From Flavobacteriales bacterium (lineage in GTDB: Bacteria; Bacteroidota; Bacteroidia; Flavobacteriales_F; PHOS-HE28): 64,000 bases of DNA. Within the stretch, counting starts at the first letter, position 1, and each line of letters opens with the position of its first letter. Made by a program: the position numbers and the translations under genes. The notes under the pieces were generated by a model. The model did no database searches. It was not told the origin of the DNA and worked only from the letters and a program-made list of their open reading frames with translations. Shown here piece after piece: positions 3,655 to 59,999 of the stretch. The DNA lies in contig JAIOIH010000050.1 of NCBI GenBank assembly GCA_019912395.1, positions 52,651 to 116,650 on the forward strand, given 5' to 3'.

Positions 3655-3950
3655 TGTCCATGTCGCATTGCGTGTCCGGTTTTCCAGGATGTAGGGGGAC
3701 CGGAGGGTTGAGCGTACGTATCCTTGTTGCCACCTGTGCGAAAACCAGAGTGTTGCAAGTTGGCACGCTTGCCCGGGGACGGAACCCGTATTTCCACTAG
3801 TTCGTCCGGGAAGATCGTTCCCGTTTTGAACAGGGGTCGGCCTTGTCCGGGGCTTCCATTGCCCGCGCCAGATCAGCTCGGCGACCACGCACTGGCCACG
3901 CACATCTCCATTCCCCCCTTCCTCTTCCCCGGGGCCTCCTCGGATCGGCC

Positions 3951-5171: not shown

Positions 5172-7480
5172 TCTGTATGGACAAAGGTTGTTCGTGTGGT
5201 ATTGCTCGTGCTCCGGATCTCCAGAACGTACACACCAGCACCGTAGCCGAGCGTGCCGATCCGGACAAGGCCATCGCCGGAGAGGTTGAAGTCCGGGGTG
5301 ATCCGCGCACCATCGGACCGGATGATGGTGAGTTCGTAGGGTCCATCCTCATCAACGATCACGGAAATGTCGCCGGAGGATGGATTGGGGAATACGCGGA
5401 GGTACCGGTTGATGTCCTCCTGCCCATCGATCGTGTTGCGTGCCTGGAAGGTGGCGTACATCTCCTGAAAGCTACCGGTCCCATTCGGGTATCGCCCCGT
5501 GGTGGTGATCGGATATTGCGTGCCGTAGCGCACTTGATCCACGATGCTCCCATCGGCATAGGACAGCATCAGGGACTCCCCGTCCGCATCCAGTTTGAAG
5601 TTCGCGTGATCGTCCCCTTCGTTCGGTTCCCCATCGGCCCAGATGATGAGGTACTCCCCGGGGGCCAGTACACGGTTCGGCATCGCCCATTTGGTCGGAT
5701 CCCCGGGATCGTCGGAGAGGTAGAGCCCGGTGGTGGCGATCGGGAAGCCGCTCGCATTGTAAAATTCGACCCAGTCATCGGCATCGCCCTCCGCGTCCGT
5801 TTCCGGACCATCGTTCAGTGCCCTGAACTCGTTGATCACCAAGGCACCGGCAGTGATCCGGGTGGTGAACGAGTGGAACTCGTAGGCCGCGCGCTCGGGG
5901 GAGAACGCCCCCGCCACGGTGTTCTCCGCATAGATGTGGAACTGCACTTGGTTGGTGGCCGCCGTGATCCGCGCACCGAAGAGGCCGTCACCCGCTGCAC
6001 CGTCACCGTTCTGGCCATCGTCCTTCATCTCCACGTATTGGAAGAGGGCGTTCGCAACGCCGCGGTAGGCCACGAAGGCCGTGTCCGCGCCCGCGATCGA
6101 GGCGGTGATGAACACGTCCTCGCCGATGGTGATGTCCTCCGGCGCATGCCCGACCGCGGTGATCACGGGCTGTCCGCTCATGCCCGGGTAGTTGCCCAGG
6201 TACACCACCCGCTGGTCCATCAGGTCGGCGATCCCCGGATAGTCCACCACATCGGCCACGGTCTGGTCCAAGTTCGATTCGAAGGCCTGGTCCGTGTAGA
6301 ACTTGTTCGTGTCCGCGTAGACATGCGGCCGGATCAGGTCGCGCAGCTCCACGGCCCGGTTGTAGTAACTGTGGTCCGCGAAGTTCTCCGCCACGACGGT
6401 GCGGATGTGCGCGAGGTACATGCGGCGATACGTGTCGTTCTCGAAGAGCTTGCGCATGAGCGGCCGCGGCTGAACGGATACGTTGTTCAGGTGCTTCAAG
6501 GGGTCCATGGTCTTGGCCTGCGCGATGCTGAAGCCGTTCCAGTACGAGGACGCGTCCGTCAAGCGAAAGCTCGCGAAGGACATGTTGAGGTCCCACAGGA
6601 TCGGGTTCCACCGGGCGTTGTCATCCTTGTAGAGGTAGTAGTTCTGTGCATACCCGACATAACTGTCGAAGTTGATCACCGTGTAGTTGATGGCGTGCAT
6701 CCACAAGGTGCGGTCCACGTTCAGGACCTCGCCGATGTGAGCGGCATCGTTGTTCAGCACATCGATCAGTTCCAGCAGCTCATCCCACCCTTCATCGGAC
6801 TCCAAGCTGTACAGTTCCGCATAGGCCGCTGGGTCGGTGCCCGGGGAATCGCTCAGGTTGGAGTTCTCCCCGTTCAGGTCCACCGTGGTGGGATTGCATT
6901 TCACGAAGGCATTGCCGCGGGAGCCGAAGTGCTTGTCCACGAATTCCTTGCTCACATCCTCCACGTTCGTGTACAGCCCGATCAGCACGTCATTCACGTA
7001 CAGGTCGGCGTAGTTGGCCTGGGAGGCGGGCATGTACTGGCGCGCCACCTCATAGGTCATGGCCTCGCGCAGGAAGGACGGGTCCTGGATCACGTTGCTC
7101 AACTTCAACTTCTCGTAGCCCTGATGGTCCTGCCCATTGTGCACATGGTCCAGCTTGATGTTGAAGGGGTTCTTCTCCCGCGACGAACTGTACGAGCTGA
7201 ATCCCTTGTAGCGAACCCCCACATCCGGGTAGCTGGACCCATCGATCACCAGGTCGCCGATGAGCCGCTCGTCGCCGTGAAGGTAGAGGGTGTCGAGCAG
7301 GTCGCTCCAATTCTCCTCGGCGAAGTACAGGCGTATCTCACGAACGGAACCCAGGTCGTAGAGGTCGGCTTGTGCGCGCAGCCCCCCGTGCGCGCAGAGC
7401 ACGACAACAAGAAGGAGCAAGCGGACCGACCTCACTTTCGGTTCAGTGTTCCACCATGACCCGACCGACGACCCGCTCAC
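5168..7480 (-). CDS. CotH kinase-family protein with lamin-tail domain and T9SS C-terminal sorting domain
   Basis: CotH-like motifs: NPFNIKLD, KLKLSN, NYYLYKD, WDLNMSF. LTD-like segment: LVINEF...DDWVEFYNASG...GLYLSDD. CTD: VFPNPSSGDISVIV. An alternative GTG start at 7435 (VRSVRLLLLVVVL) would remove the overlap with the upstream gene. Confidence 0.85.
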   Translation of the reverse strand: MSGSSVGSWWNTEPKVRSVRLLLLVVVLCAHGGLRAQADLYDLGSVREIRLYFAEENWSDLLDTLYLHGDERLIGDLVIDGSSYPDVGVRYKGFSSYSSSREKNPFNIKLDHVHNGQDHQGYEKLKLSNVIQDPSFLREAMTYEVARQYMPASQANYADLYVNDVLIGLYTNVEDVSKEFVDKHFGSRGNAFVKCNPTTVDLNGENSNLSDSPGTDPAAYAELYSLESDEGWDELLELIDVLNNDAAHIGEVLNVDRTLWMHAINYTVINFDSYVGYAQNYYLYKDDNARWNPILWDLNMSFASFRLTDASSYWNGFSIAQAKTMDPLKHLNNVSVQPRPLMRKLFENDTYRRMYLAHIRTVVAENFADHSYYNRAVELRDLIRPHVYADTNKFYTDQAFESNLDQTVADVVDYPGIADLMDQRVVYLGNYPGMSGQPVITAVGHAPEDITIGEDVFITASIAGADTAFVAYRGVANALFQYVEMKDDGQNGDGAAGDGLFGARITAATNQVQFHIYAENTVAGAFSPERAAYEFHSFTTRITAGALVINEFRALNDGPETDAEGDADDWVEFYNASGFPIATTGLYLSDDPGDPTKWAMPNRVLAPGEYLIIWADGEPNEGDDHANFKLDADGESLMLSYADGSIVDQVRYGTQYPITTTGRYPNGTGSFQEMYATFQARNTIDGQEDINRYLRVFPNPSSGDISVIVDEDGPYELTIIRSDGARITPDFNLSGDGLVRIGTLGYGAGVYVLEIRSTSNTTRTTFVHTE

Positions 7481-8951
7481 CGGAACTCAGCGCGGCGCGC
7501 ACATGGTACAAGCCTGCGGGTTGGGCATGAACATCCAGTTGAACGGTGTTACTGGAGCGCAACACCTCACGGCCCGTGGCGTCGATCAACACGATGCTCG
7601 CCACCTCGCCCGGAACAACACCGCTCAGCGTGACACTGTTGTTCGCCGGGTTCGGGAACAAGGTGATCGTACGCTCATCGATCGGACCCGTCACTCCCGT
7701 GCTCAGGCCGCAGGGGTCATCACCCAACAAGGCGATGATGCCGGGATCATCACAGGTATAGCGGAAGGCCTTTTGCGGACTGGCGTTGTACTGCCAGATC
7801 ACCGTGCCAGCCTCGTTCACCTCGTACATGTATTCCTCCGAGAGCGCCACGAAGGTGTTGCCGTTCGGCATTCGGTCCGAAGCGCTCTGACCAGCGGAGT
7901 TCGCCACGCAGCTGTGCCGCCAATCATACACGGAGGGACCGTAAGCGCTGCCCGCCGAACGTGGGTACAGGTACCCGTCGCGCTCCGGGTTGATCGCGTC
8001 GATCACCGTGCTGTTACCGGGGCCGCCCACGTTGTTCACGAACTGCAGGTATCCCGCGTTCGGACGGCCAGCCTTGATCCAACGGACATCATGCACCGCC
8101 CCGGCGATGGTCTGTGTACCCGGAGTGCCGTAGTTGGCCGGCTTGCCCCAGCGGAACAGGAAATCCCCTCCCATGCCCGAGTTCCCTCCGGTATGCCCAG
8201 CCGCCTCGGCCGTTGTGGTGCTATGGTCGATGATGAAGATCTCGCTGAGATAGCGCGAGCTGAAGACGATCTGGTCCAGGTCCGCATTGTAGTCGATGCC
8301 GTTCACGTGGAACCAATCCCCGCTGGGCGGGCCTCCACCGCCCGCGCTCGTGACCACATTGATGTTCATGCGCTCGGGATGATCGGCGATGGGCATGTAG
8401 TTGGGCTTGTTCGCATCCACGAATTGGATGAATCGGTCCAGCATGTTCCACTCCCATACCACCGCCCCTCCGGAGCCGTTCTGCGCCACCTCGATGATCC
8501 TTGTCGGCCATTTCGCTGAGTTACCGGTGTACCCGAGCGCCTGCAAGGCTGCATTGGTCTGGGCGACCCAGGCCGTCATCAACACATTCCCGTTGGGCAT
8601 CAGGCAGATGTCATGATGGGTCACATACTGGGAGGTGGAGTAGACGAATTCCCACACCAACGTTCCGTTCGGCGTGAACTCCTGGAGCTTGCCGCCGACC
8701 GCTGCACCGTTCAAGGAATTGCCCTGGTTCACCGCGCCGCGCACGATGTTCCCGTTCGGCTTCAGGGCCATCGCATAGTTCGCGTTCGATGGCAGGGACC
8801 AGGAATGGGCGATCTGGCCGCTTGCGTTGATGAGGTAGGCCGTGCTTTGGTTCTGGTTATTGTACAGCGCAAAGCCATCGAATTGGGCTGGCGAAAGGAA
8901 TGCCAGGAACAGGCCCAAACTGAGCATTAGTGTACGAGCAGGGAGCAACAT
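7443..8951 (-). CDS. arylsulfotransferase (ASST)-like beta-propeller protein with T9SS C-terminal sorting domain
   Basis: Signal peptide MLLPARTLMLSLGLFLAFLSPAQ. ASST-like motifs: THHDICLMPNGNVLM and WFHVNGIDYN...FSSRYLSEIFIID. CTD: LFPNPANNSVTLSG...GLYHVRA. Confidence 0.65.
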   Translation of the reverse strand: MLLPARTLMLSLGLFLAFLSPAQFDGFALYNNQNQSTAYLINASGQIAHSWSLPSNANYAMALKPNGNIVRGAVNQGNSLNGAAVGGKLQEFTPNGTLVWEFVYSTSQYVTHHDICLMPNGNVLMTAWVAQTNAALQALGYTGNSAKWPTRIIEVAQNGSGGAVVWEWNMLDRFIQFVDANKPNYMPIADHPERMNINVVTSAGGGGPPSGDWFHVNGIDYNADLDQIVFSSRYLSEIFIIDHSTTTAEAAGHTGGNSGMGGDFLFRWGKPANYGTPGTQTIAGAVHDVRWIKAGRPNAGYLQFVNNVGGPGNSTVIDAINPERDGYLYPRSAGSAYGPSVYDWRHSCVANSAGQSASDRMPNGNTFVALSEEYMYEVNEAGTVIWQYNASPQKAFRYTCDDPGIIALLGDDPCGLSTGVTGPIDERTITLFPNPANNSVTLSGVVPGEVASIVLIDATGREVLRSSNTVQLDVHAQPAGLYHVRAALSSGERVVGRVMVEH

Positions 8952-9128
8952 CAGGTGGATCGGGTTGTGGTGAATGCCCCTGGATCGGGCGAAACTAAAT
9001 GGGTGGTCCGATCTTGGACCGCCGGATCGGCAAATGGTTCGATCGACCCGATGAAACCATTTCCACGGACCTTTCGACCGGTCGATGCTCGCAACCGATG
9101 TGTACTGGAATGGAGCGCAGGGTTCCGC

Positions 9129-10982
9129 TCACCCACGCTCCACGAAGTACATCTCCATCTCCCCCTTGCCCTTGGCCTGCACCTTGCCGCGCGGGGTGAA
9201 TACGAATCCAGGCTCATCCTTCACGCATTGGAAGGTGGCCTCGCTGATGTTCACCTTCCCCGCCTCCCCGGCGCTCTCCATGGCGCTGGCGGTGTTCACG
9301 GCATCGCCCCAGATGTCATAGGCGAACTTCTTCATGCCCACGATGCCAGCGACGACGGAACCCGTATGTATGCCCACGCGCATCTCGAACGCGGGCAGGC
9401 CGGTCTTCTCGCGTGCTGCTTTTCGTGCCGCGATGTACGCCTGCATTTCCAAGGCGGCGCTCACCACACCGGCCGGATCGGTGGACGTGGGGTCCGGCAA
9501 TCCGCCCACGCACATGTAGGCATCCCCGATGGTCTTGATCTTCTCGATGCCCTTGGCCGTAATGATCCGGTCGAAGGCCTTGAAGCAGGTGTCCAGTTCC
9601 TCCACCAGGGCCTGGGCGCTCATCGATGCACTGATGCGCGTGAAATCCTTGAAGTCCGAGAAGAGGATGGTGGCACCGGGGTAATCGCGGGCCATGGCCG
9701 TGCCCTTGTCCTTGAGCTCCTGCGCCACGGAAGCCGGAAGGATGTTCAGCAACAGCCGTTCCGACCGCTCCCGCTCCCGTTGGATCCGGGCACTGGACAA
9801 ACGCATGTGGCGCAGGCGGCTCCACAGTCCACCTGCCAACACCAACACCGCAACACCACTGAAAATGGCAATGTTCCGCCCTTCGCGCTCACTGGCCACT
9901 TCCCCTTGATGGCGCAACTCCTCCTCAACCTGCTGCTTGGCCCTGGTGAGGCTGTCCGCCAATTCGCGCTGTGCAAACTCATGGTCCATCTCCACACGCG
10001 TCATCTCCTGCACCCTGGCCTCCCCGAAGAGCGTATCCTTCAGGGCCACGGACCGCCGGAACATGGCCAGGGCACGGCCATCGTCACCGAGGGCCCCATA
10101 CGCCTTGGACAAGCATTCACACGCTTGCTGCTCGAACGGTTTTGCATGCCTGGCCTCCGCCATGGCCAAGCCCATTCGGCAATAGCGCAAGGCCAAGCGC
10201 GGGTGACCGGCACTGATCTCGTTGTTGCCGTAGATGATGTACACCACCGCCAGTTGCAGCTCGCTGTTCCGGCCCGTCAGGTTGCGGATGCTGGCCTCCA
10301 AATAGGTGCGCGCGGAATCCCAGTTGCCCAATTGCTGCTGGCAAATGCCGAGGTGCATGTCACTGATGCCGATCCAGCCGGTGTCCTGCAAGGTCTCCCA
10401 GATCCGCAGGCCGTGCTTGTGGAACACGAGGGCGTTCTGCGGTTGGCCCCGGTCCTCGTAGAGCGAGCCCATGTTGTTCCAGTACTTGGCCGTTTCCCGT
10501 TGCAGTCCGAGCCGCTGATAGATCTCGCCGCTTCGGCGGTAATAATCCCCCGCCTTCTCATAGTTCTTCTGGAAATGCTGGATGGCGCCGATGTGGTTCA
10601 GCACTTCGGCCAGGCCAAGGTCCTCGCCCCGCCCCTTCTCAACCTCCAGTGCTTGATAGAGTACCGTCAGCGCCCGGTCGTTCTCACCCAGCAATTGAAA
10701 GAGGACGGCCTTGCGCCGCAAAAGCCTACCGATCGCTCGTTGATCACCGTCCACGTTCGCAACGACCAAGGCCGAATCCAGCATGAGCACCGACCGATGG
10801 TACAGGCCCGCGTCCTTCAAGCCGTCCGCTTCGGCCATCAAGCTTTGCCATGTGGGGGCAGGATCCGAGGTGCGCGACCATACCGGCGTTACGGCCAATA
10901 GCACCAAGGCGAGCAAGGCTGCGCGGAGCACGGTGAGCCTTGCGTCATCCCGACACATCGCCGACCCATACTGCTCAAACAT
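9129..10982 (-). CDS. TPR-repeat sensor fused to class III adenylate/guanylate cyclase (paralogue of 1696..3654)
   Basis: The ORF spans 9129..11084. Likely starts are ATG 10982 or 10958, ahead of the hydrophobic LRAALLALVLLAVTPVWS. Cyclase motifs: ILFSDFKDFT, KTIGDAYMCVGGLP, GIHTGSVVAGIVG, WGDAVNTASAME. The C-terminus GKGEMEMYFV is shared with the other copy. Confidence 0.9.
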   Translation of the reverse strand: MFEQYGSAMCRDDARLTVLRAALLALVLLAVTPVWSRTSDPAPTWQSLMAEADGLKDAGLYHRSVLMLDSALVVANVDGDQRAIGRLLRRKAVLFQLLGENDRALTVLYQALEVEKGRGEDLGLAEVLNHIGAIQHFQKNYEKAGDYYRRSGEIYQRLGLQRETAKYWNNMGSLYEDRGQPQNALVFHKHGLRIWETLQDTGWIGISDMHLGICQQQLGNWDSARTYLEASIRNLTGRNSELQLAVVYIIYGNNEISAGHPRLALRYCRMGLAMAEARHAKPFEQQACECLSKAYGALGDDGRALAMFRRSVALKDTLFGEARVQEMTRVEMDHEFAQRELADSLTRAKQQVEEELRHQGEVASEREGRNIAIFSGVAVLVLAGGLWSRLRHMRLSSARIQRERERSERLLLNILPASVAQELKDKGTAMARDYPGATILFSDFKDFTRISASMSAQALVEELDTCFKAFDRIITAKGIEKIKTIGDAYMCVGGLPDPTSTDPAGVVSAALEMQAYIAARKAAREKTGLPAFEMRVGIHTGSVVAGIVGMKKFAYDIWGDAVNTASAMESAGEAGKVNISEATFQCVKDEPGFVFTPRGKVQAKGKGEMEMYFVERG

Positions 10983-11167
10983 GGCGCAAAAGGTAGGCAC
11001 GGACCGGTGGATCCGTGGCCGAATACATGCCAAAGGACCGCTTGGGCCCCAACGAACCGGACAACTCCAATGCATGATGTACAAGGTGTACTTCCCTTGA
11101 CCTTCGCCAATGCCGGGAACCGTTCCCGGAGCATTTATTATACCTTGACCCTGAAAAACCCACCTCG

Positions 11168-11800
11168 ATGAACCTGATCACAACCATCTCCCTCCTTGTC
11201 TCCCTGATCGCCGCACAGGGATCCCTTGCACAGGATAATTCCGGTTCCTCCGGTGAGCCTTCCGCCTCGGACCCCGGCTTCACGGAGGCCCTGTTCGATG
11301 CAGCCACGGTCAGCGACCTGCTGAAGAGCGAGGAGGCCATGGGCATCCGTTTCTACAACGTGCTGGCCGAACCCAGGGATGCGGACGGAACCGCCATGGC
11401 GATCGGCATCCGCACGAACGGCAGCGAGTTGAACGCCGGAAAGAGCTATCGGCTCAGCTTGGGTTTTGTGGATGGGAAGATCGCGATGAGCAACCTCAAC
11501 ACCAAGAGTGCCAGGACGGCCTGCGTGAACATGGACGACCCTACGCATCCCTCCTATTCCGCATCCTTCACCCGCACGGATGTGCAGGCCTTGCTGGACC
11601 TGACCGGTTGCCAAGCCCTGCAAGCCGTGCCGGACACCACGGTGAAGGACGAGACCACCATGCGCCTTGTCGCCATGAAGGTCACGGACGGCAAGGCATT
11701 CCCCTTGGGCAGCGGCCCCGAATTCCAGCGAATGTGCGGTTTCCCCTGCCCACTGGTCTGCGGCCCGGAGGAAAATTACGTCTACCGCAGCAAGTACTAA
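11168..11800 (+). CDS. secreted hypothetical protein
   Basis: 210-aa ORF with signal peptide MNLITTISLLVSLIAAQGSLAQ. Cys-rich C-terminus. No family recognised. Confidence 0.6.
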   Translation: MNLITTISLLVSLIAAQGSLAQDNSGSSGEPSASDPGFTEALFDAATVSDLLKSEEAMGIRFYNVLAEPRDADGTAMAIGIRTNGSELNAGKSYRLSLGFVDGKIAMSNLNTKSARTACVNMDDPTHPSYSASFTRTDVQALLDLTGCQALQAVPDTTVKDETTMRLVAMKVTDGKAFPLGSGPEFQRMCGFPCPLVCGPEENYVYRSKY

Positions 11801-12029
11801 TGTGCCGCTTGGGCACGCACGCGGAAATCCTCGATGAAGACCCTGCGAAGATCTCAATGGAACGCGCATGTGGGCGATCACGGGATGCAGGGTTCCGCGT
11901 CGAAAACCCTGCGGAAGTGCAGGGGCATTAAAGGAACATTCCGTTGCGCACCAGAACTCCGTAACATAGGGCACAAGGTTCCGGTGGGTTTCGCGATGAT
12001 CGTCAGTTCCCCGTGAACCAAGTACAGGG

Positions 12030-12872
12030 TTGAACGCATTCCCAATATCCCATGGGCCACTGAGCATGAAACCGAGCAATGACAGCAATGCCCGTGATGC
12101 ACAGGGGAAGAACCCGCCGACGTACGGCCTGGTCCTCTCCGGGGGTGGTGTGCGCGGCGCGGCACATATCGGTGTGATCAAGGCGCTGGAGGAACATGGC
12201 ATACGGCCCGAATACATCGCCGGGGCCAGCTCCGGCGCCATCGTAGGGGCCTTTTATGCGGCGGGGCACGGCTGGGAGGAGACCTTGGATTTCTTCCGGG
12301 GCATGTCCATTTTTACATGGGGGAACTACGCCCGCGGCAAACCCGGAATGCTCGATGCGGACAAATTCCGCAAAGGGTTTGAGAAATACTTCCCGGGGGA
12401 CCGGTTCGAGGCACTGAAGAAGAAGTTGTTCGTTGTCGCGTCGGACCTCATCAAAGGGCGCTCCCGGGTGTTCCAGGAAGGCCCGCTCATCCGTACGCTC
12501 CTCGCCTCCTCTGCCGTGCCGGGGGTGTTCTCTCCCGTGGTGATCGACGGCTCGCTGTACTCGGACGGCGGCATCACCAACAACTTCCCCGTGGAGCCGC
12601 TATTGGCGACCTGCGACCGGATCATCGGGGTGTTCGTGAACCCGCTGAAGCAGGTGTCCGCCAACGAGCTCCGCTCTTCCTTTGCGGTCCTGGAGCGTGC
12701 CTTTTCCATGGACCGTACAAGCCATTCCATCCGGAAGTTCGATGACTGCGACCTGGTGATCAGCCCGGAGAGCCTCGCGGCCTTCGGCACGTTCAGCACC
12801 CAACATGTGGACGAGATATTCCGGATCGGGTATGAGGCCGCCCTGCGGAAATTGGAGGCGTACGAGCAGTGA
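12030..12872 (+). CDS. patatin-like phospholipase
   Basis: Oxyanion motif SGGGVRG, nucleophile elbow GASSG, and catalytic Asp context YSDGGI. The start could instead be ATG 12066. Confidence 0.9.
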   Translation: MNAFPISHGPLSMKPSNDSNARDAQGKNPPTYGLVLSGGGVRGAAHIGVIKALEEHGIRPEYIAGASSGAIVGAFYAAGHGWEETLDFFRGMSIFTWGNYARGKPGMLDADKFRKGFEKYFPGDRFEALKKKLFVVASDLIKGRSRVFQEGPLIRTLLASSAVPGVFSPVVIDGSLYSDGGITNNFPVEPLLATCDRIIGVFVNPLKQVSANELRSSFAVLERAFSMDRTSHSIRKFDDCDLVISPESLAAFGTFSTQHVDEIFRIGYEAALRKLEAYEQ

Positions 12873-13085
12873 TGGCGTGGCCGGTTTGCCGCGCACGGGC
12901 CTTTCGCAATGAACACGCAGCAGGAGATATTGGAAGCAATGAACGATCTCGATCAAGGGAAATTCGGGTACTTGGAGGATTGATGGCAGCCAGCGTGGAG
13001 CCTACGCACAGCGCCAACGCGAAGATCCGAACATCCGCCCTGCCCTACCTTTATCCCATTCCACAAATCAGCAAGAACAACCATC

Positions 13086-13523
13086 ATGATCCGATCGAGC
13101 AAGGCCATTTGGAAGGGAAGCGGCAAGGAAGGCGGCGGCCTGTTGACCAGCACCAGCGGCGTATTGAAGGACACGCCCTATTCCTTCACCACCCGCTTCG
13201 TCAGCGAGGACGGCAAGGCGGGCACCAACCCCGAGGAACTCATCGCGGCCGCACATGCGGGCTGCTTCACCATGAAGCTCAGCTTCTTGCTTGGCAACGC
13301 AGGCCACACGCCCGATGAACTGGACTGCACCTCCGAGGTGAAGCTCGGTCCGGTGGAAGGCGGTACGGGCATCGTCGGCATCCATCTGGTGTTGAAGGCC
13401 AAGGTCAGCGGCATCAGCCAAGCGGACTTTGATGCCTGCGCCGCGGATGCCAAGGTGAACTGCCCCGTCAGCCAGGCGCTGAAGGCCGTGCCGATCACGC
13501 TGAGCGCAACCTTGGCGGGCTAG
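13086..13523 (+). CDS. osmC: OsmC family peroxiredoxin
   Basis: 145 aa, collinear with my recollection of E. coli OsmC (WKGSGKEGGG..., GTNPEELIAAAHAGCF, CPVSQAL). Both conserved Cys residues are present. Confidence 0.9.
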   Translation: MIRSSKAIWKGSGKEGGGLLTSTSGVLKDTPYSFTTRFVSEDGKAGTNPEELIAAAHAGCFTMKLSFLLGNAGHTPDELDCTSEVKLGPVEGGTGIVGIHLVLKAKVSGISQADFDACAADAKVNCPVSQALKAVPITLSATLAG

Positions 13524-50897: not shown

Positions 50898-51090
50898 GTA
50901 GTTTGTGGCGTGGCACGCCTGGTTTTGGGGATTGAAACGACCCTTCCCCGGCGATGGATATCGGCCATTTAGCCGAGATAACAACTATCTCGCAGATAAT
51001 CAAGGACTTAAATTGAGCCGAAAGCCGAAAAACCACGCCAACAAGGGCCTTGGACGCTGAAGACAAGGCTGCCCCGCAGCTCAACGCGAG

Positions 51091-51384
51091 CAGGTTTCCG
51101 GAAATCTTGAACAGGTTTGGGGGAATCTTGAACAGGTTTCAAGGAATCTTGAACAGGTTTTCAGGAATCCTGAACAGGTTCCCGGAAATCTTGAACTGGT
51201 TTCAAGGAATCTTGAACAGGTTTGGAAAAATCTCGAACAGGTTTTCAGGAATCTTGAACAGGTTCCCGGAAATCTTGAACAGGTCTTCAGGAATCTTGAA
51301 CAGGTTTTCGGATATCCTGGACAGGTTTCCAGGAATCTTGCACAGGTTTCAAGGAAACTTGAACAGTTCTCCGAAGACCCTGAA
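51091..51384. repeat. 14 tandem copies of a 21-bp unit with internal dyad symmetry
   Basis: Units start every 21 nt from 51091. Consensus: caggttt[c/t]NNggaatcttgaa. Several units contain TTCAAG-gaat-CTTGAA or TTCAGG-aat-CCTGAA palindromes. Units 5 and 9 are identical. There is a partial 84-bp higher-order pattern (units 1~5~9, 4~8, 3~6, 2~7). Confidence 0.95.
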
Positions 51385-51480
51385 CATCATGCCGCGCATC
51401 ATCACTGTGAACTCGGTTGCCCGGCCCGAACATCGGCGGGTTCCGCCTCGCTGGACCGATAGGCACTCCGTAAGGTAAGC

Positions 51481-51741: not shown

Positions 51742-52136
51742 GGATGGAGGATGGGTGGATCTGCACGCGAAGATGGTAGGGGCCTCCAGTACCTGCAATA
51801 CCCATAAAGGGGGATTTTGCAGGGGCATGGGCATACAGGCCGCGAAGCGGGATCGGCCCTCTTAGGCGAGCTGGTCCTATACCTTATATATACAGGTGGG
51901 CTGCTGAGCACGGCTCCCAGGGGTTTGGCTTCCTCGGCTTTCGGCCCTTCGGCCAAGGCATTCGGCTTTCGGCGGCTTCAGGCCCCTTGGCGGTTGGCGG
52001 CTTCAGGCTCTTTCGGTTGAAGAGGTGCTTTCGGTGAACGGTGAGGTGCTCCAGCGCTGGGCCCGCCGCCTCGGCGGGAAAGGCATTTAAGGCACCGATC
52101 ATTTCCTCATCGGTGCGCGCACCTATCTTGCTCCGC

Positions 52137-53081
52137 ATGCCAGGTCCGCTACTGCCCGACTACCTGCGGTTGAAGCGGGCCAATGGTCGTGCGCCCCATA
52201 AGCCCGTGCTCTTGCTGGCCGTGCTCAAGGCCATCGATGAAGGGCTGATCACCGAGAACCGGATCACCCCTTCCGCTGAACTGATCAACCTCTTCAATGG
52301 CTACTGGGCGGCGTTGGTGAAGGACAGCCCCTATCAACGACGCTTCTTCCTTCCCTTCTACCACTTGAAGAACGAGCACTCGGGCCTGTGGAAACTGCAT
52401 ACGTTGCCGGGCTTCGAGCACGGACTTACCCGCTCCAATTCCATCAAGAGCCTCAGCGCGCTCATCGCCTTCGATGCCTATGCGGAATTGCGCGCGGATG
52501 TTTTCGACCGCTGGCAAGATCGGGCGCATCGCGCTGCCGATCAGCTCATCCTTGTAGCGAAATACTTCACCGGCCAAGCCGTTCCCAACGCGTTGCCGGA
52601 CCACCTCCGCGAGATCGAACGCCAGATCGAGCACGATACACCGGAAGCCTATGTGGCACGCCAACTCCAACACCTGCAGGAAGAGGAGGAGGAAGAACAA
52701 GTGCTGCGCGGTGCCGCCTTCAAGCGCAAGATCCCTGAACTATACGGCTACCGCTGCGCCATCACGGGCCTGCATATCCAGCACAACAAACGGGCAAGCT
52801 TGATCGATGCTTGCCACATCGTTCCATGGGCCGATTCCTATGACGACACGATCACCAACGGCATCGCACTTTGCCCCAATATGCACCGCGCATTCGATCG
52901 AGGCCTCATCAGCATCGCAGCGGACTATACCGTGATCGTGTCCAACGAACTTCGGGAAGCGGATACGCCTTATGCCATCCGGCCCTTTGCCGGGAAGCGG
53001 TTGATCCTGCCGGATCACACACTACACCATCCGGCGTTGAAGAACTTGGCGATGCATCGGGAACGGTCCGGGTTCAATTGA
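52137..53081 (+). CDS. HNH (HNH_2-type) endonuclease with N-terminal reader-like domain; type IV-restriction-like
   Basis: The ORF spans 52041..53081, with a probable start at ATG 52137 (MPGPLLPDYL). N-terminal GRAPHKPVLLLAVLKAIDEG. C-terminal YGYRCAITG...IDACHIVPW...NGIALCPNMHRAFDRGLISI is the HNH_2 signature. Confidence 0.75.
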   Translation: MPGPLLPDYLRLKRANGRAPHKPVLLLAVLKAIDEGLITENRITPSAELINLFNGYWAALVKDSPYQRRFFLPFYHLKNEHSGLWKLHTLPGFEHGLTRSNSIKSLSALIAFDAYAELRADVFDRWQDRAHRAADQLILVAKYFTGQAVPNALPDHLREIERQIEHDTPEAYVARQLQHLQEEEEEEQVLRGAAFKRKIPELYGYRCAITGLHIQHNKRASLIDACHIVPWADSYDDTITNGIALCPNMHRAFDRGLISIAADYTVIVSNELREADTPYAIRPFAGKRLILPDHTLHHPALKNLAMHRERSGFN

Positions 53082-53428: not shown

Positions 53429-53824
53429 ATGAGAACCTCCGACTCCTGCATCCCCAGCAATGAACGGCAAGCACTTCAATGGCTCATTCCTGCGCTGGAC
53501 AGCCCACTAAGTGACATGTCCCACGAAGATTTCCTCAAGGCATGGTTTTCAATCGGCTACCTCTATGGAGGGCTCCATCCCGACGAAGCCACTGACCATG
53601 GCACCGAGATCAGCATGAAGGCTGAAGGCCCGGATCGCTTCCGCTTGATCGAGCCTCGTTTGATCGCACCGTTCTATGTACAGAGTGGTTGGCCGGTGGT
53701 GCTTGCTCCGCTTGCGGACGAAGCATGGGCACGCTATGAAGATGGCCTACTGGAGGATGATGAGCTTTACTGCTATGAGGCACTCCAACACGGACTTCTG
53801 AAGCGCATCCTTATTCCTAGGTGA
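53429..53824 (+). CDS. hypothetical protein
   Basis: 131-aa ORF, the first gene inside the lower-GC segment. No family recognised. Confidence 0.45.
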   Translation: MRTSDSCIPSNERQALQWLIPALDSPLSDMSHEDFLKAWFSIGYLYGGLHPDEATDHGTEISMKAEGPDRFRLIEPRLIAPFYVQSGWPVVLAPLADEAWARYEDGLLEDDELYCYEALQHGLLKRILIPR

Positions 53825-53937
53825 TACGACCACAATGATGTGTACAAAATGAAGCGACAGAGTATCGGCAGATGCCCCCTATGGTTCTATGTTCGCAACG
53901 ACCACTCAGGTCATCCATTCCAAGAACTCAGCCGCAC

Positions 53938-55173
53938 ATGACCTATCGCGATTCAACAATCGGCGTAACTACTGTAGAAGACGGTAGTTCCTTGTTTCAC
54001 GGAATAGATGATTGGAGAACGAGTACGTTCGAAAACCCGAAAGCCACAATTAATGTTGGCACTTCTTTCAGCGGAATAGGAGCTATTGAGCATGCCTTTC
54101 AAAGGCTCAATTTGAATCACGAGATTCTATTTGCAGGCGACATCGACAAATTTGTCAAGCAGAGCTATTTTGCCAACTATGAGATAGGGCATAGGCATTG
54201 GCACTCAGATATTCACGACCTATCCGCTAAGAAATTCAACCAAAAAATTGACCTCCTGGTCGGCGGAAGTCCTTGCCAAGCATTTTCCATGGTTGGCAAG
54301 CGGCTTGGCTTAGAGGACACTCGGGGCACATTGTTTTATGAGTTTGCACGGCTCGTCAACGAATCAAAACCCAAGGTTTTTATTTATGAGAACGTTCGAG
54401 GCCTGACTAACCATGATGGAGGTCGGACATGGCAGGTTGTAAAGGATGTATTCCACGACCTTGGCTATAAAATTCATTTCGACTTGCTCAACAGTAAGGA
54501 TTACGGTATTCCGCAACATCGCGAGCGAATTTTCGTGGTCGGCTTTCTTGACCATGACGTTTCATTCAACTTTCCACAACCAGTGGAGTTGGAAAGGACG
54601 ATGCAGGACTTCCTCGAGGACTATACTGAATCGAAGTACTACCTGCGGGAGAAGGGAATCAAGTTCGTCACTAGCACGAAGAATAGACTTAAGCGCTATA
54701 CCCAAATCAATGGCGCTGTTGCCCTTTGTCAAAAAGCGAATCAGCAATTCAACTGGCATGGTGACTTTGTGTTCGATGATCGAGAGCTCAAAACGGACTT
54801 CGACGAATTCGTTTTTGACGTATCTGAAGTGGAGGAGAAGTACTACCTCTCGCCTAAGGTCAGCAAATATGTGCTCGCCGGTGGCACTAAGAACTTCAAG
54901 ACAAGCACAGAAACAGATCTTGCTGTAGCTCGACCATTGTTGCAATCGATGCATAAGATGCACCGCGCAGGAGTAGATAATTACGTAACTCATCGATATG
55001 GTCGCATTCGGAAACTCACCCCACGCGAGTGCCTACGACTTATGGGATTCAGGGACACCTTCAAAATCGATGTTAGTGACACACAGATGTATCGTCAAGC
55101 GGGCAACAGTATTGTTGTTGATGTATTGATTGCGATTTTGAAGCAGATGGACATCACGAAGTTCGGGCGATAA
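53938..55173 (+). CDS. dcm: DNA (cytosine-5)-methyltransferase
   Basis: Motif I FSGIGAIE, motif IV GGSPCQAFS, motif VI ENVRGL, motif VIII QHRERIFVVGF, motif IX RKLTPRECLRLMGF, motif X QAGNSIVV. The ORF opens at 53872; ATG 53938 was chosen as the start. Confidence 0.93.
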   Translation: MTYRDSTIGVTTVEDGSSLFHGIDDWRTSTFENPKATINVGTSFSGIGAIEHAFQRLNLNHEILFAGDIDKFVKQSYFANYEIGHRHWHSDIHDLSAKKFNQKIDLLVGGSPCQAFSMVGKRLGLEDTRGTLFYEFARLVNESKPKVFIYENVRGLTNHDGGRTWQVVKDVFHDLGYKIHFDLLNSKDYGIPQHRERIFVVGFLDHDVSFNFPQPVELERTMQDFLEDYTESKYYLREKGIKFVTSTKNRLKRYTQINGAVALCQKANQQFNWHGDFVFDDRELKTDFDEFVFDVSEVEEKYYLSPKVSKYVLAGGTKNFKTSTETDLAVARPLLQSMHKMHRAGVDNYVTHRYGRIRKLTPRECLRLMGFRDTFKIDVSDTQMYRQAGNSIVVDVLIAILKQMDITKFGR

Positions 55174-55183
55174 GCAGCTATTC

Positions 55184-56173
55184 ATGGCCGATGAAATACT
55201 GATTGAGGGGAAGCGCTTCGCGGTTATAGACGCGAAGGAGAAGATGACCATTGCGGATTCTTTCGTTATGCCCAGCAACAAACTTGGCAGTGGTAACGGT
55301 GAAGCCAAGTTTTACGTCGGTAATGAAGGGACTGAGGTTCGTGACTTTTTCGGACCTCACGGCTTTTCGATTAACTGTTTCATGTTGCGCGATGACCTAC
55401 TTAAATACCTCGAGGCAACAGAACCAGAGTATCGAAAACCAGAACAGCCATACCGTCGAGCTGAAAATCTCCCTCGTTTGTGGCAAGAACGTGTGGAAAA
55501 GATTCGCAGACTCCCCGAGATTATCTCTTTTCCTGCGCAAGAGCAAATCCAAATCAGCGGTCCAAGGATTTACATAAACTCGATAGGGAATCAATACTAT
55601 TCGCTCATTCGTGAAGTGTCGTTGCCGAACATCACGTATATAGCCGCAATCAAGCTTCGTGATTCAGTCGGCTCAATCAGCTACTACTTGCGATTGTTTG
55701 TTGACTACTTCGGTAATCAAGAGCACCCTTCCGAAGTTGCTGATGCAGCCGCTAAAATTGCCAACGAGAACATACCTGCGACAGAAAAAGAGCAACTTTC
55801 TAAAGCTCGTATAGGCCAAGGAAAATACCGAGATGGTTTATTACACGAGTGTCCATTCTGCCCTATTACTATGGTATCAGATGATCGGTTGCTAATTGCG
55901 AGTCACATCAAGCCTTGGAAAGACTCCTCCGACGTCGAACGTATCGACTCGAAAAATGGGCTCTTGCTCACCCCCACCTACGATAAGCTATTTGATTTAG
56001 GGCTTATCACGTTTGACAATGACAAGCGCATGCTTGTGTCTCCGTTTCTTTCTCGAATGACCTGCTCAAAGCTGAGCCTCGTGGACAAGCGCGTTATCAC
56101 ACACCTGCCCTTGGAAGGACGAAAGACATATATGGAATATCACCGAGATGTGAAGTTCAACCGCGCCGGTTGA
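55184..56173 (+). CDS. HNH_2-type restriction endonuclease (putative cognate type II REase)
   Basis: Starts 10 nt after the MTase gene. RIGQGKYRDGLLHECPFCPIT...LIASHIKPW...NGLLLTPTYDKLFDLGLITF is the HNH_2 nuclease signature. Confidence 0.8.
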   Translation: MADEILIEGKRFAVIDAKEKMTIADSFVMPSNKLGSGNGEAKFYVGNEGTEVRDFFGPHGFSINCFMLRDDLLKYLEATEPEYRKPEQPYRRAENLPRLWQERVEKIRRLPEIISFPAQEQIQISGPRIYINSIGNQYYSLIREVSLPNITYIAAIKLRDSVGSISYYLRLFVDYFGNQEHPSEVADAAAKIANENIPATEKEQLSKARIGQGKYRDGLLHECPFCPITMVSDDRLLIASHIKPWKDSSDVERIDSKNGLLLTPTYDKLFDLGLITFDNDKRMLVSPFLSRMTCSKLSLVDKRVITHLPLEGRKTYMEYHRDVKFNRAG

Positions 56174-56611
56174 AAGATTTTAGGGAGAGTACAGAGTCAA
56201 GAATTGGATTGAGCACACAGCTGAGCGTGTGAGTGACTTGCACACATAGTGATGATCGATTAAATTCTTACTGAGGAGCGACTTGAACATTGCGATATCG
56301 GAGGCACGCCGGGCACAACGCGAGAATTCGCCATTATGACAGTTCTGTGACGAGTCGTTCTGGCAGACATATTAAGGCATTCACTAACATCTGCGACCCA
56401 GATCAAGTGCTCCGCAAGTTTTCACGTCATCCGATTGATAGCATCCCTGGCGAGTTTCAGGATGGTTGCCTCGCCCAAATATTCAGTTATCCACGATAGA
56501 TCTAACCTGACACACAGTTTTGCTGGAGTTGATCGGCATGCCACTTGGTAGTGCTGAAAAAACCGCATCGCTCACTCAGATCCCTGCGGCATTCCACCAA
56601 ATGCAAAACGC

Positions 56612-57007
56612 ATGGACCCATATTCTACGCTTGAAGTACCGCACACCGCGACCATAGAAGAGATCAAGAAGGCCTACCGACGGTTGGCCAAGAAGTGGCA
56701 TCCTGACAAGTACAACGGGAACCTCGACGCAGCGGAGATGTTCCGAAAGGTCAAGGCGGCCTACGACTGTCTGGTCGATCCGATTAAGCGCGAGACAGAG
56801 GACCTGAAGTGTAAGCAAAGGGAACAGGCCAAAGCGGCTAAGAAAGCCGAGCGCCAAGCAGGACAATGGGCCAGCGCTCAGTCCACGTCAAATACGGCAG
56901 GCATTAGCCTGCAGGCAATCGGACTTATAGTCATTGCCCTTATCGTTTTCCTCGCGGCGTTGTTCGGGAGCGATGAGCGCACTTCCCATCCATCAGCAAC
57001 TGCATAA
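56612..57007 (+). CDS. membrane-anchored J-domain (DnaJ-like) protein
   Basis: DPYSTLEVPHTATIEEIKKAYRRLAKKWHPDKY contains the HPD tripeptide. A charged linker is followed by a C-terminal TM helix (LQAIGLIVIALIVFLAALF). Confidence 0.8.
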   Translation: MDPYSTLEVPHTATIEEIKKAYRRLAKKWHPDKYNGNLDAAEMFRKVKAAYDCLVDPIKRETEDLKCKQREQAKAAKKAERQAGQWASAQSTSNTAGISLQAIGLIVIALIVFLAALFGSDERTSHPSATA

Positions 57008-57050
57008 CCTCAATACCAAATTAAACTCTATCCAGTAATACCGAACAACC

Positions 57051-58145
57051 ATGGCAGACATTACACAAGCAACAGCAACCGAAGACACTGACACCGCGTC
57101 AAACGCACCAGACGGCGGCAGTAGCCCTGAGACTGTGCCCAACGATCTTCAGGCCCTGCGCCGAGACTTGTTGGAGGAAAAAAACCGACTTGGCTCACTG
57201 GCCAAGAAGACGGAAGCCCAGCTTGGGGAGGTCGGCGAGAGCCACAAGCAAGCGGATGAGCTCCTGAAGTCTCTCCGGGAAGCACTGGATCAAGTGAAGA
57301 CAGTCACTGGTCAGGTCGAAAAAACGACATCGAAAAGCCAGGCACTGGAAGAGAAGCTGAAGGAGCTCGAGACCAAGGCTACCTCCTTCGTGGAACAGGT
57401 AAATGGGACCGATGGCAAGGAAGGTTGGTTAGGTGCGATGGAGGGTGCCAACAAGCAGATGAAGGAATCAGCGGATTCGTTCGCAGCCCATCGCAAGGAT
57501 CTCTCCGACTTCCATGACTTGGTCATGGGAAACGAAGAACAGAAGCTGAAGGGTGCGCGTAAGGAGTTCGAAGAAATCCGGGAGCAATATCAGGCCGATC
57601 TGAAAAAGCAACAGGTGGCTTTCGAGGCCTTGACCAACAGAATTGAAGGGCTCCTTCCAGGTGCGACATCAGCGGGTCTGGCCTATGCTTCCAAAGAACA
57701 AAAGCGTGCCTACCGGCTCCCCATCTTGATATCTGCGGGAGTTGCCGTGGGGATACTTCTGACGTTGGTGATTTACGGGATCGCCACCGCGGAACCAGTC
57801 ATCAATTGGTCCGGAGCACTGCTTCACCTCATCTCCCACATTCACATTTACGGCCCGGGGATCTGGCTGGTGATCATCGCATTACGCAAGTTGAACCAGT
57901 TCACCCGTCTAGAGCAGGAGTATGCGCATAAGGAGACCTTAGCCAACACCTATGTAGGGTTCATCCGTGAAGTGGAGAAGCTGCCTGAGACCGAAGGCAG
58001 CAAGGCCATGCGCGAAGAATTGCTCAACAGCGCGATCGCCTCCAGCAGCTACAACCCAAGCACCACCCTCGATGGTGCAGGACATGATGAGCGCCCACCA
58101 GTGTTGGACAAGCTCGCCGATGTTCTCCCGACAAACAAGAAGTAA
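57051..58145 (+). CDS. coiled-coil protein with two C-terminal TM helices, unknown function
   Basis: 364 aa. The first ~210 aa are rich in E/K/L/Q heptad-like sequence. TM1 is LPILISAGVAVGILLTLVIYGIA and TM2 is GPGIWLVIIAL, followed by the conserved-looking LEQEYAHKETLANTYVGF. Starts 43 nt after the J-domain gene. Confidence 0.65.
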   Translation: MADITQATATEDTDTASNAPDGGSSPETVPNDLQALRRDLLEEKNRLGSLAKKTEAQLGEVGESHKQADELLKSLREALDQVKTVTGQVEKTTSKSQALEEKLKELETKATSFVEQVNGTDGKEGWLGAMEGANKQMKESADSFAAHRKDLSDFHDLVMGNEEQKLKGARKEFEEIREQYQADLKKQQVAFEALTNRIEGLLPGATSAGLAYASKEQKRAYRLPILISAGVAVGILLTLVIYGIATAEPVINWSGALLHLISHIHIYGPGIWLVIIALRKLNQFTRLEQEYAHKETLANTYVGFIREVEKLPETEGSKAMREELLNSAIASSSYNPSTTLDGAGHDERPPVLDKLADVLPTNKK

Positions 58146-58181
58146 GAGACGCTCGAAGTATCCTTCTCAATCACATCGCAC

Positions 58182-59999
58182 ATGTCCATCAACCATATTG
58201 GAGACAGCGAGCTTCTGACCGACCTGCTGGTCAGTGGGAACGGGTACTTCTACAAGCGCATGCAGAAAATTCCGAATCAAGCCATCGAAAAGGTGTTCAG
58301 GGACGTGGCCGCCGATAAGAAGGGATCGAAGCCACTCGTTCGAGTTGTGCGCAACACACACGTTGTAGGCAGCAAGACCATCCGCTATTCAATATGCGTC
58401 CTCAGATACCCCGACCAGCCGAGCTTTCTGAGAAAGCCACTCACTGGTTGGCATGAAACGAAGTACGCGTTCCTTCTAATCGTAGAGGTCGATGACAACG
58501 TTGCAGTTTACAAGAGGAACGCGTCCAACATGGGTGAGCTGGACGCATACATCGAACCGTTGGACTATGTCACAATCTCGCGTCTGTTCGTAGACGGCGG
58601 GACGCAGTTTGAGAAGTTCTATGTAAGCCAGCTGAGCACCGCAGAGCATGCCATTCGCAACCAGTCAATGGAGGCGAACAATCTGGCTGGTGTGATACCA
58701 CGGCTTGGAGCGCCGAAGAAGATTGTACAGAATCTGCGAGTCCTAAACGGTAGTGATCGGCGATCAATCTCCTGCAACACTTCTCGTATCAACAACTTGA
58801 GCGAGAAGAACGATCTCAACGCTTTCTTCTCTTGGGTAGTCAGCACGTTTAGCTTAATTGATGGGTTCAAGCCGAGGGCAACGTACCTAGACAATTTCTC
58901 CACACCGGTTAGCTATTCAGCTCATCGAACCAGCCTCCATCCATCATCGATCCTGATTAAGCTTGATAAGCTGAAGGATGATGTCGAGAGACAGCGCATC
59001 AGTCACATCTACCGGGTTGACGATTCAGGTGCCTTTGACAAGAACTTATCGCTTTCTGACCTGATCGAAACTGTTGAGGGCGCCTTCGAAGTTGTGCCCG
59101 ATGGCATCAAATGGAAAATCCAGCATGGGATTTACGATGACTTGGAGTTGAAGTTGTATGAGAAGTCCATGGGGATTCGATCGGCGAAGTTGAAAGCGAT
59201 TCGTTTGGATTTCGATGGAGACGAGCAGGACCTATTGGGGTATCTGAACCACAGGCATGACTTCATCGTGAACTTCTTCAACGTGGAGTTTGTCTATACA
59301 ATGCGCAAACTCTGGAAGGACCATCGACTACTAGAGGATCTGGATGGCTTCATGTCTGTTTTCTCCGGTCATGCTGAATTGGCGGGTATGAAGAGTGAGA
59401 AGGGCCTGTTCTCGATGGGGCAAAAGACCTTCGATTCCAACTCGACGTTTGGGTTTATTGTAGAGAAGCTCGCTGCGAAATCTCAGGTGCTGATCTGTGA
59501 TGACCAAGCGACGGAGTGGGCAGACTTCATTGGAATTGATAAGGACAATCTCTCCTTCTATCACGCCAAGTATGTGAGTGACCCAGGTCTTTCAGCATCT
59601 AAGCTTCATGAGGTCATCGGGCAAGCCCACAAGAACATAGGCTTTCTTGAACCGGACGATGCTGTACTGAGCAAGAGAATGTCGAAGTGGGGTGAGGTGT
59701 ATTCAAATGATGGTGTGAAGACCGCAATACCCCGACTGGTCATTCCGCCTCCTGGGGGGCATCCAAGCTTGGCTGCGTTCTATTCTACCAGCCTCGGCCG
59801 ACCCAATGTGAAGAAGAAGGTTCATCTTGTCATCACGTCTATCTCTAGGAGTCAACTCGTAAGCGCCCTTGCGCAACTCAAAGCAGGAGCATCCTTCGGT
59901 AGAAAGGCTGAGACGATTCAGATTTTGTGGTTCGTTTCTTCCCTGGCCGCCAATTGCCGCGAGTTGGGAGCTGAGCTGCACGTTCACTGCTTGCCTTGA
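58182..59999 (+). CDS. large hypothetical protein (605 aa) with possible C-terminal PD-(D/E)xK-like motif
   Basis: Starts 36 nt after the previous gene. No TM helix or signal peptide. VLICDDQATEWADFIGIDKDNLSFYHAKYV has the spacing of an E-x-(A/P)D ... h-h-h-x-x-K nuclease core, with His where D/E/Q is expected. The assignment is weak. Confidence 0.6.
   Translation: MSINHIGDSELLTDLLVSGNGYFYKRMQKIPNQAIEKVFRDVAADKKGSKPLVRVVRNTHVVGSKTIRYSICVLRYPDQPSFLRKPLTGWHETKYAFLLIVEVDDNVAVYKRNASNMGELDAYIEPLDYVTISRLFVDGGTQFEKFYVSQLSTAEHAIRNQSMEANNLAGVIPRLGAPKKIVQNLRVLNGSDRRSISCNTSRINNLSEKNDLNAFFSWVVSTFSLIDGFKPRATYLDNFSTPVSYSAHRTSLHPSSILIKLDKLKDDVERQRISHIYRVDDSGAFDKNLSLSDLIETVEGAFEVVPDGIKWKIQHGIYDDLELKLYEKSMGIRSAKLKAIRLDFDGDEQDLLGYLNHRHDFIVNFFNVEFVYTMRKLWKDHRLLEDLDGFMSVFSGHAELAGMKSEKGLFSMGQKTFDSNSTFGFIVEKLAAKSQVLICDDQATEWADFIGIDKDNLSFYHAKYVSDPGLSASKLHEVIGQAHKNIGFLEPDDAVLSKRMSKWGEVYSNDGVKTAIPRLVIPPPGGHPSLAAFYSTSLGRPNVKKKVHLVITSISRSQLVSALAQLKAGASFGRKAETIQILWFVSSLAANCRELGAELHVHCLP

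Follow-up and report, generated by a model that had tools for sequence, protein, structure and literature searches.

A J-domain gene with a C-terminal transmembrane helix at the head of a probable modular array of candidate defence genes in a Flavobacteriales bacterium

The subject of this analysis is a cassette of three co-directional genes, g1, g2 and g3, in a 64,000-nt stretch of DNA from a Flavobacteriales bacterium (GenBank assembly GCA_019912395.1, contig JAIOIH010000050.1, positions 52,651 to 116,650 of the forward strand), referred to below as the window; coordinates are those of the window and are collected in Table 1. g1 encodes a J-domain protein with a C-terminal transmembrane (TM) helix, an architecture that we abbreviate J-TM, g2 a coiled-coil protein with two TM segments, and g3 a soluble protein. 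We favor, with a probability of about 0.55, the reading that the cassette is a modular array, in which a J-TM leader gene is followed by two independent candidate defence genes, over that of a three-component machine. The reading draws on the variety of genes that follow the J-TM gene elsewhere, on the discordant divergence of the three genes between loci, and on the separate distributions of the g2 and g3 families. Anti-phage activity of the genes in the array is suggested by their sequences and neighborhoods.

The J-TM gene precedes varied defence cargo

The J-TM gene was found directly 5' of its cargo, on the same strand and 3-150 nt away from it, with nine types of cargo: (i) g2 and a member of PDC-S71, the family to which g3 belongs (the window and L094); (ii) g2 and a gene of about 253 aa (L090, L095); (iii) g2 and PDC-M34 (L092); (iv) g2 with nothing further co-directional (L102/L194), g2 being the cargo throughout L194-L197; (v) PDC-S71 without g2 (L089); (vi) pAgo and a protein with a restriction endonuclease (REase) fold (L190, L191); (vii) a type II CBASS comprising SAVED, CD-NTase and E2-like proteins (L192, L193); (viii) a type III CBASS comprising CD-NTase, HORMA, a TRIP13-like AAA protein and a NUDIX effector (L198); and (ix) DUF2188 and a 225-aa gene (L199-L206). 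In most of L190-L206, the J gene is positioned at about 5001-5400. The J-TM loci have at least four distinct chromosomal flanks, and all of them come from related metagenome-derived genomes of one lineage of uncultured Bacteroidota, in which a variety of defence operons seem to share the J-TM gene as their first gene. The association of the cassette genes with defence, already claimed in a preceding reading of the DNA from its letters and open reading frames (ORFs) (the sequence-only reading), is strengthened by these results. A literature search that combined DnaJ with CBASS, Argonaute or defence islands gave no report of such an arrangement or of an island-encoded J protein of this type.

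DNA homology among the J-TM loci stops at the J stop codon, after which no conserved junction or recombination sequence was found. Given this result and the absence of tRNA genes between 45 and 64 kb of the window, exchange by an integron-like or att-site route found no support. Among the third genes, those of L092 are PDC-M34A (DUF5343) and a DpnII-MboI-fold nuclease, PDC-M34 being a two-gene PADLOC candidate. A precomputed DUF1889 label on the third gene of about 253 aa was not reproduced in a Pfam scan and was dropped.

Frequent upstream of the J-TM gene are DUF3368, in divergent orientation, and a gene in which HTH_3 and Peptidase_M78 are fused. They form part of a recurring scaffold (L190, L192, L198 and L199; about 2200-4900), together with a 73-aa ORF and DUF2188 paired with a small enzyme, which is either an LRAT/Peptidase_C92 protein or an HNH protein; the fused HTH_3-Peptidase_M78 gene combines CapH/CapP-like domains in a single protein. 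In L102 and L194-L197 (5412-6526), the g2 homologue that follows the J gene is split into two overlapping ORFs of 133 and 249 aa. The split, present on every contig shown for that J protein (about 30 contigs are on record for the protein), could represent a fixed frameshift, a pseudogene or a two-part variant.

The last part of the spacer in front of g1 is conserved whatever the neighbors on its left or downstream (Table 1). It contains GGCATGCCACTTGG, an element of the form GGCAY-N5-TTGN, the GGCA core of which is invariant in all 12 loci of the alignment. In the window, both strands counted, 7 matches to the loose pattern are present, and for this reason only the positional conservation of the element is taken into account; on that basis, it may be a promoter, possibly of the sigma-54 type. 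Closer to g1, a 51-nt segment containing CCGCATCG...CCCTGCGG is predicted to fold with about -8 kcal/mol, and a search of the leader against Rfam returned no family. The three genes are probably co-transcribed from this leader, since no terminator-like site was found on the + strand between them.

The g1 protein itself was described in the sequence-only reading as a J domain with an intact His-Pro-Asp (HPD) motif and a C-terminal TM anchor, and the description was borne out by Pfam and by hydrophobicity. The DnaJ family of Pfam matches residues 2-62 (E = 1.3e-21; 76.9 bits against a cut-off of 27.8 bits), the HPD motif (H30-P31-D32, within KKWHPDKY) is invariant across 36 homologues, and the one hydrophobic segment, residues 100-118, forms the TM helix in the order J domain, charged linker, TM helix and short tail. 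The same order is kept by the homologues, which amount to about 75 clusters of 125-143 aa with 50-84% identity. Orthology of g1 to DnaJ, CbpA or DjlA was considered and rejected, the NCBIfam matches being restricted to the J domain and far under their cut-offs (e.g., 74.7 versus 377 bits and, for the DjlA model, 28.5 versus 162 bits). Scans of viral contigs with g1 gave generic J-domain matches only, mostly in giant-virus bins.

The three genes have different histories

Between the window and L094, identity is 63% for the J protein, 78% for g2 and 91% for g3, while between the window and L090, it is 82% for the J protein and 86% for g2, with g3 absent. Because the divergences are discordant between loci, the three genes must have had different histories, and modular exchange among them is directly visible. 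The DNA similarity between the window and L094 ends at the g3 stop codon; that to L087 and L089 covers the g3 ORF only and stops at the same codon.

The full trio was found in two distinct loci, the window and L094. For g3, 80 genomic loci were fetched, mostly from Bacteroidota and Alphaproteobacteria, with some from Acidobacteriota and one from a Clostridia genome; this locus scan was made by alignment, a scan of genome contigs with the single protein having given nothing. A g1 homologue is present in none of the 80 loci and a g2-like gene in 1 (L025), and the gene that follows J and g2 varies, as listed above. The single three-gene system put forward in the sequence-only reading is, in other words, not co-conserved, and it is largely refuted by this lack of co-conservation. 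L025, the only locus outside the J-TM set with PDC-S71 and a g2-family gene side by side, carries (8001-13521) the g2-like gene about 900 nt downstream of PDC-S71, past an integrase fragment, and then an Hcp(TssD)-like gene.

g3 is a member of a catalogued candidate family with a possibly nuclease-like C terminus

Although g3 had been described as unassigned, it is already catalogued as PDC-S71, a single-gene candidate in PADLOC: residues 12-605 match positions 4-589 of the 589-position profile PDLC05077 with E = 4.7e-171 and 568.6 bits. The phage defence candidates (PDCs) are 145 systems, each nominated because one or more of its members lie inside a BREX, DISARM or Type I restriction-modification (R-M) system (Payne et al., bioRxiv 10.1101/2024.01.29.577857), and they are predictions by guilt by embedding (Payne et al., bioRxiv 10.1101/2024.01.29.577857). 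In the literature searched, no paper mentions PDC-S71 by name and no mechanism for it has been published.

An exhaustive profile search with g3 gave 1,368 representative clusters, nearly all of about 600 aa and full length; the 150 matches listed were full-length members only, with no bridge to a known family. Neither Pfam nor NCBIfam contained a family matching g3 at E <= 0.1, a scope that includes TIGR04141/DUF6119 and Cap4/DUF4297, both of which had been proposed as checks, and the protein has no TM segment. Affiliation with DUF4868/KwaB of Kiwa, likewise proposed, found no support, there being no Pfam match for g3, no PADLOC Kwa match for g2 or g3 and no KwaB among the Foldseek matches in the PDB. 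g3 was found neither in PHROGs nor in 2.9 million viral contigs.

The immediate neighbors of g3 include no conserved family; they comprise integrases, HamA, SAVED, Shedu, GajB-like helicases and R-M genes. Of its closest relatives, that in L089 directly follows a J-TM gene and lacks g2, and that in L087 lies beside DruA and DUF87 genes, without J or g2. The latter is the closest relative outside the J-TM loci, with 71% identity; three ORFs on its own strand precede it (L087, 308-6575), encoding a DruA-like protein, a product of 387 aa and a DUF87/HerA-like ATPase, and the group may be another defence cluster. One PDC-S71 member (P0290; 1,018 aa) carries an N-terminal fusion to Peptidase_S41; among L001-L080, the gene immediately beside g3 codes for an S41 peptidase in two loci and for a Tle1-like (DUF2235) hydrolase in four.

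The AlphaFold2 model of g3, a confident one (predicted local distance difference test [pLDDT], 86; predicted template modelling score, 0.74), has a beta-rich part, residues 1 to about 420, without recognizable relative, followed by about 180 C-terminal residues in the order alpha-beta-beta-beta-alpha-beta (helices 422-430 and 472-486; strands 436-439, 449-452, 456-463 and 544-555). The possible nuclease-like core that the sequence-only reading had placed near residue 450 is present, as a prediction, in the form of a conserved block, CDD..EWADFI...FYHAK...GQAxKN, at residues 439-485 of the alignment. Nearly invariant within it are C439-D440-D441, E445, D448, H461-x-K463 and Q481/K484/N485, with D448 and H461-x-K463 conserved at 90% or above. 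The layout is PD-(D/E)xK-like, but His stands in place of the acidic residue of (D/E)xK and there is no profile match. Foldseek against the PDB gave a best E value of 0.02, with no KwaB-like or other defence fold; its HincII and CdiA-CT matches (E = 0.2-0.4) are non-significant, and the alignment profile compared with PDB sequences returned noise or coiled-coil matches only. Specific nuclease and KwaB-like assignments were therefore dropped, Foldseek having no match at E <= 0.001. We put the chance that the C-terminal unit cuts nucleic acid slightly above even and, in view of the negative outcome of the profile and structure searches, treat this activity as putative.

g2 belongs to a large two-TM family that recurs in other defence settings

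The picture of g2 as a candidate membrane effector with a coiled coil, two TM helices and a conserved tail was supported at the level of prediction. In the AlphaFold2 model, which is all-helical and of modest confidence (pLDDT, 69), a helical stretch runs from residue 31 to about 201; hydrophobic segments of the protein lie at 223-241 and 260-278. The N-terminal helical region is variable, the family occurring in forms of about 295, 365 and 490 aa. The C-terminal module is conserved, with 22 invariant columns in the alignment, and consists of IEGLLPGATSAGLA (the LLPGATSAGLA motif), the two TM helices, RLEQEYAHKE and NPSxTLD...H..PP; the tail LEQEYAHKETLANTYVGF lies in this most conserved part of the family. 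A homology search gave 993 matches, whereas Pfam, NCBIfam and PADLOC returned coiled-coil noise and no specific match, and PHROGs gave weak matches to two families of unknown function. g2 represents a large family absent from Pfam, NCBIfam and PADLOC.

The distribution of the J gene around this family was assessed within +-6 kb in 92 metagenomic and IMG/VR loci. A J domain accompanies g2 only where the homologue is close (at least 69% identity), with the J-TM gene 3-44 nt upstream in 9 of 9 distinct loci; it is present in 0 of about 87 distant loci. In about 9 of the distant loci, the gene sits inside a Type I R-M operon, with hsdS on one side and hsdR on the other; members of about 490 aa have this position in L134, L135, L138, L153, L162 and L165, and also in L137, L146 and L150. 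Other neighbors of the distant loci include Schlafen/AlbA_2, Abi_2, GmrSD, YhcG-type nucleases and integrases. Since this is evidence of the same type as that by which PDCs are nominated, g2 can be regarded as a credible stand-alone defence candidate, and its architecture suggests that it may permeabilize membranes.

Several more specific identities for g2 were considered and set aside. No structural match in the PDB was found at E <= 0.001 with Foldseek, in which ClyA and SmhB appeared at noise level (E about 2), and a ClyA-like fold was rejected; the alignment profile gave weak matches to the PDB sequences of Hbl-L1 and XaxA, with E about 1e-4 to 1e-3. An assignment to Zorya was rejected as well, the matches to ZorA being marginal (E = 0.017-0.039) and confined to the coiled coil, with no MotA/ExbB-type core. 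SLATT, suggested in the sequence-only reading as a fold to look for, had no Pfam match in g2 at E <= 0.1.

A proposed mechanism and its alternatives

A working scheme for the modular array can be outlined as follows: (i) g1, with its own conserved leader of about 200 nt, would serve as the first gene before interchangeable defence cargo, and its J domain, located on the cytoplasmic side of the membrane, would attract DnaK to that site and activate it; (ii) g2, one such cargo and a self-sufficient family, would sense or regulate through its variable N-terminal coiled coil, and its conserved two-TM hairpin and cytoplasmic tail would target the inner membrane, as in abortive infection; and (iii) g3, a second independent cargo, would recognize a cue or be regulated through its beta-rich N-terminal part and cut nucleic acid with its C-terminal PD-(D/E)xK-like unit.

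A number of observations count against such an array. The intergenic gaps are tight and the trio recurs in the diverged L094, as would be expected of an operon-encoded system; the J gene is directly upstream of every close g2 homologue; the J-TM loci all come from related genomes, and a single hotspot family, rather than function, could account for the leader pattern; g2 and g3 are without significant structural match, and their effector roles rest on motifs, predicted topology and context; finally, PDC-S71 is itself a predicted candidate (Payne et al., bioRxiv 10.1101/2024.01.29.577857). The first of these would be accommodated by the obligate three-gene system of the sequence-only reading, in which the membrane pair g1/g2 is coupled via DnaK to cytoplasmic g3. 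Co-directional genes, gaps of 43 and 36 nt, the lack of an internal terminator-like site and the second trio in L094 agree with it, but with just two distinct trio loci, g3 alone in 80 loci and its closest relatives at L087 (DruA/DUF87) or L089 (J, no g2), J and g2 elsewhere followed by PDC-M34 or the gene of about 253 aa, and discordant gene identities, we consider it highly improbable. A genuine two-gene system of J and g2, with g3 as an independent neighbor, is a possibility to which we give some, though limited, credence: J would use DnaK to restrain or assemble g2, and phage takeover or titration of DnaK/DnaJ would free g2 to bring about membrane collapse. The constant placement of J 3-44 nt upstream of close g2 genes, the occurrence of the pair in at least four flanking contexts and the precedent for chaperone guarding in bNACHT25, which needs host DnaJ (PMC12169576), all argue for such a pair, as do the J/g2 identities, which fall in step across loci (82/86, 63/78, 61/79 and 60/76%), although this co-divergence could reflect mere physical linkage. 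The pair is harder to reconcile with the J-TM genes that precede pAgo, CBASS II, CBASS III, PDC-S71 or the DUF2188 pair without g2, and with the roughly 87 distant g2-family loci that have no J domain.

Alternatively, g1 could reside passively in a mobile island or at a recombination hotspot, with no functional tie to the defence genes (e.g., as an island-encoded co-chaperone for membrane stress), and cargo would gather beside it by chance or recombination. The relatedness of the genomes that carry J-TM loci, the recurring upstream scaffold of DUF3368, fused HTH_3-Peptidase_M78 and DUF2188 modules, the lack of a conserved recombination site after the J stop codon and the variation of cargo on the left of J as well (L090) are in keeping with passive residence. 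It is nevertheless unlikely in our judgment, given that J consistently comes immediately before the cargo, in the same orientation and at a distance of 3-150 nt, for nine cargo types, and that an invariant HPD and a conserved leader have been kept across at least four chromosomal sites. On balance, the modular array of a J-TM leader and independent cargo genes remains the reading that we prefer.

Locus and island context

The layout given in the sequence-only reading, with co-directional ORFs separated by 43 nt (g1-g2) and 36 nt (g2-g3), a 438-nt spacer between the end of the HNH REase gene and g1, and a position inside a low-GC island, was confirmed. The GC content is 0.455-0.536 over 54-60 kb and 0.60-0.67 in the flanking DNA; at 0.479, the spacer, which had been called AT-rich, merits the description when compared with the host, though not when compared with the island. 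Upstream of the cassette, the Dcm and HNH genes of an R-M pair and another HNH enzyme (Table 1) confirmed the defence-island setting. Identical copies of the cassette are found on contigs of at least six samples, and the cassette is consequently not an assembly artifact.

Table 1. Features of the cassette, its leader and the adjoining restriction genes in the window
Feature	Positions	Strand	Length	Remarks
Second HNH enzyme	52041-53081	+		NCBIfam NF045808, E = 1.2e-28, 100 bits (cut-off 180); Pfam HNH_2, 3.2e-13
C5 cytosine methyltransferase (Dcm-type) of the Type II R-M pair	53872-55173	+		Pfam DNA_methylase, 1.3e-80; PADLOC MTase_II
HNH_2 endonuclease of the Type II R-M pair	55184-56173	+		Pfam HNH_2, 6.9e-11; PADLOC HNH, REase_II
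Leader and spacer	56174-56611	+	438 nt	Last ~200 nt (56400-56611) conserved in 12 aligned loci
GGCATGCCACTTGG, GGCAY-N5-TTGN element	56535-56548	+		Sigma-54-like -24/-12 spacing; 64 nt 5' of the g1 start
Hairpin-like block, CCGCATCG...CCCTGCGG	56563-56589	+		In the 5' leader; in 6 of 12 aligned loci
g1	56612-57007	+	131 aa	J-domain ORF
g2	57051-58145	+	364 aa	Coiled-coil and two-TM ORF
g3	58182-59999	+	605 aa	Soluble ORF; PDC-S71 member

The second HNH enzyme lies just beyond the low-GC stretch and adjoins the Dcm/HNH pair; it resembles phosphorothioated-DNA-binding restriction endonucleases, with a score below the cut-off of the model. Between the two HNH genes, a 131-aa ORF (53429-53824) is kept in all copies of the locus, and it has no match in Pfam, NCBIfam or PADLOC. 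Further upstream, a 21-nt unit is repeated in tandem 13.5 times with 77% matches (51091-51373). The array overlaps an ORF (51050-51478) with a product in which the peptide ILNRF recurs; the ORF is called as a gene on related metagenomic contigs. According to Pfam, genes downstream of the cassette encode sorting domains of the type IX secretion system, which places the host in the Bacteroidota.

Implications

The tempting call of a new three-gene system is replaced by a modular picture, in which g3 is assigned to the existing PDC-S71, now accompanied by a model of its fold and by a nuclease hypothesis drawn from motifs, and in which g2 points to a large two-TM family that current defence catalogues have missed, even though its members are found inside Type I R-M operons. 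The new lead is the link between the J-TM leader and diverse defence operons. At a more speculative level, the tail-anchored J protein might be a shared defence accessory, a membrane recruiter of DnaK with a possibly sigma-54-type leader, that heads interchangeable immune operons. The cargo of such an accessory would, as tentatively, include g2-type two-TM proteins, PDC-S71, PDC-M34, pAgo and CBASS II/III, and its conceivable roles would be either to license these systems or to guard the Hsp70 machinery that phages exploit. If the J gene acts on its cargo, the Hsp70 chaperone system would be tied directly to bacterial immunity, a link to which, to our knowledge, only one recent study, on bNACHT25 and DnaJ, has so far pointed.

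Comparison with known systems

Several known systems share features with parts of the array. PDC-S71 is matched by g3 over its full length, as a single gene amid variable, defence-rich neighborhoods; the difference is that g3 here closes an array headed by J, and PDC-S71 itself is predicted only. The embedding of distant g2 members between hsdS and hsdR is the arrangement that nominates PDCs by guilt by embedding and is known from PrrC-type cases, whereas g2 of the window follows a J-domain gene outside any Type I system and has no hidden Markov model in PADLOC. With two-TM abortive-infection effectors (SLATT, CBASS 2TM) and toxins of the ClyA family, g2 shares long cytoplasmic helices followed by a hydrophobic helical hairpin, a resemblance that is architectural only.

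For g1, three comparisons can be drawn. DjlA is likewise a membrane-tethered J domain with HPD, but its order, N-terminal TM, TerB-like region and C-terminal J domain, is the reverse of that in g1. Host DnaJ is required by bNACHT25 for sensing phage (PMC12169576), which provides a precedent for a J-domain chaperone needed by a defence protein in order to sense phage (PMC12169576); bNACHT25 relies on the housekeeping DnaJ, whereas the J protein of g1 is encoded in the island. CapH/CapP are described as regulators of CBASS and other immune operons. Like CapH/CapP and WYL/BrxR-type regulators, the J-TM gene is a conserved gene heading many unrelated defence systems, and an HTH_3-Peptidase_M78 gene is often found divergent near it; those regulators bind DNA, however, whereas g1 is a membrane-anchored co-chaperone domain, for which a regulatory role would be hypothetical.

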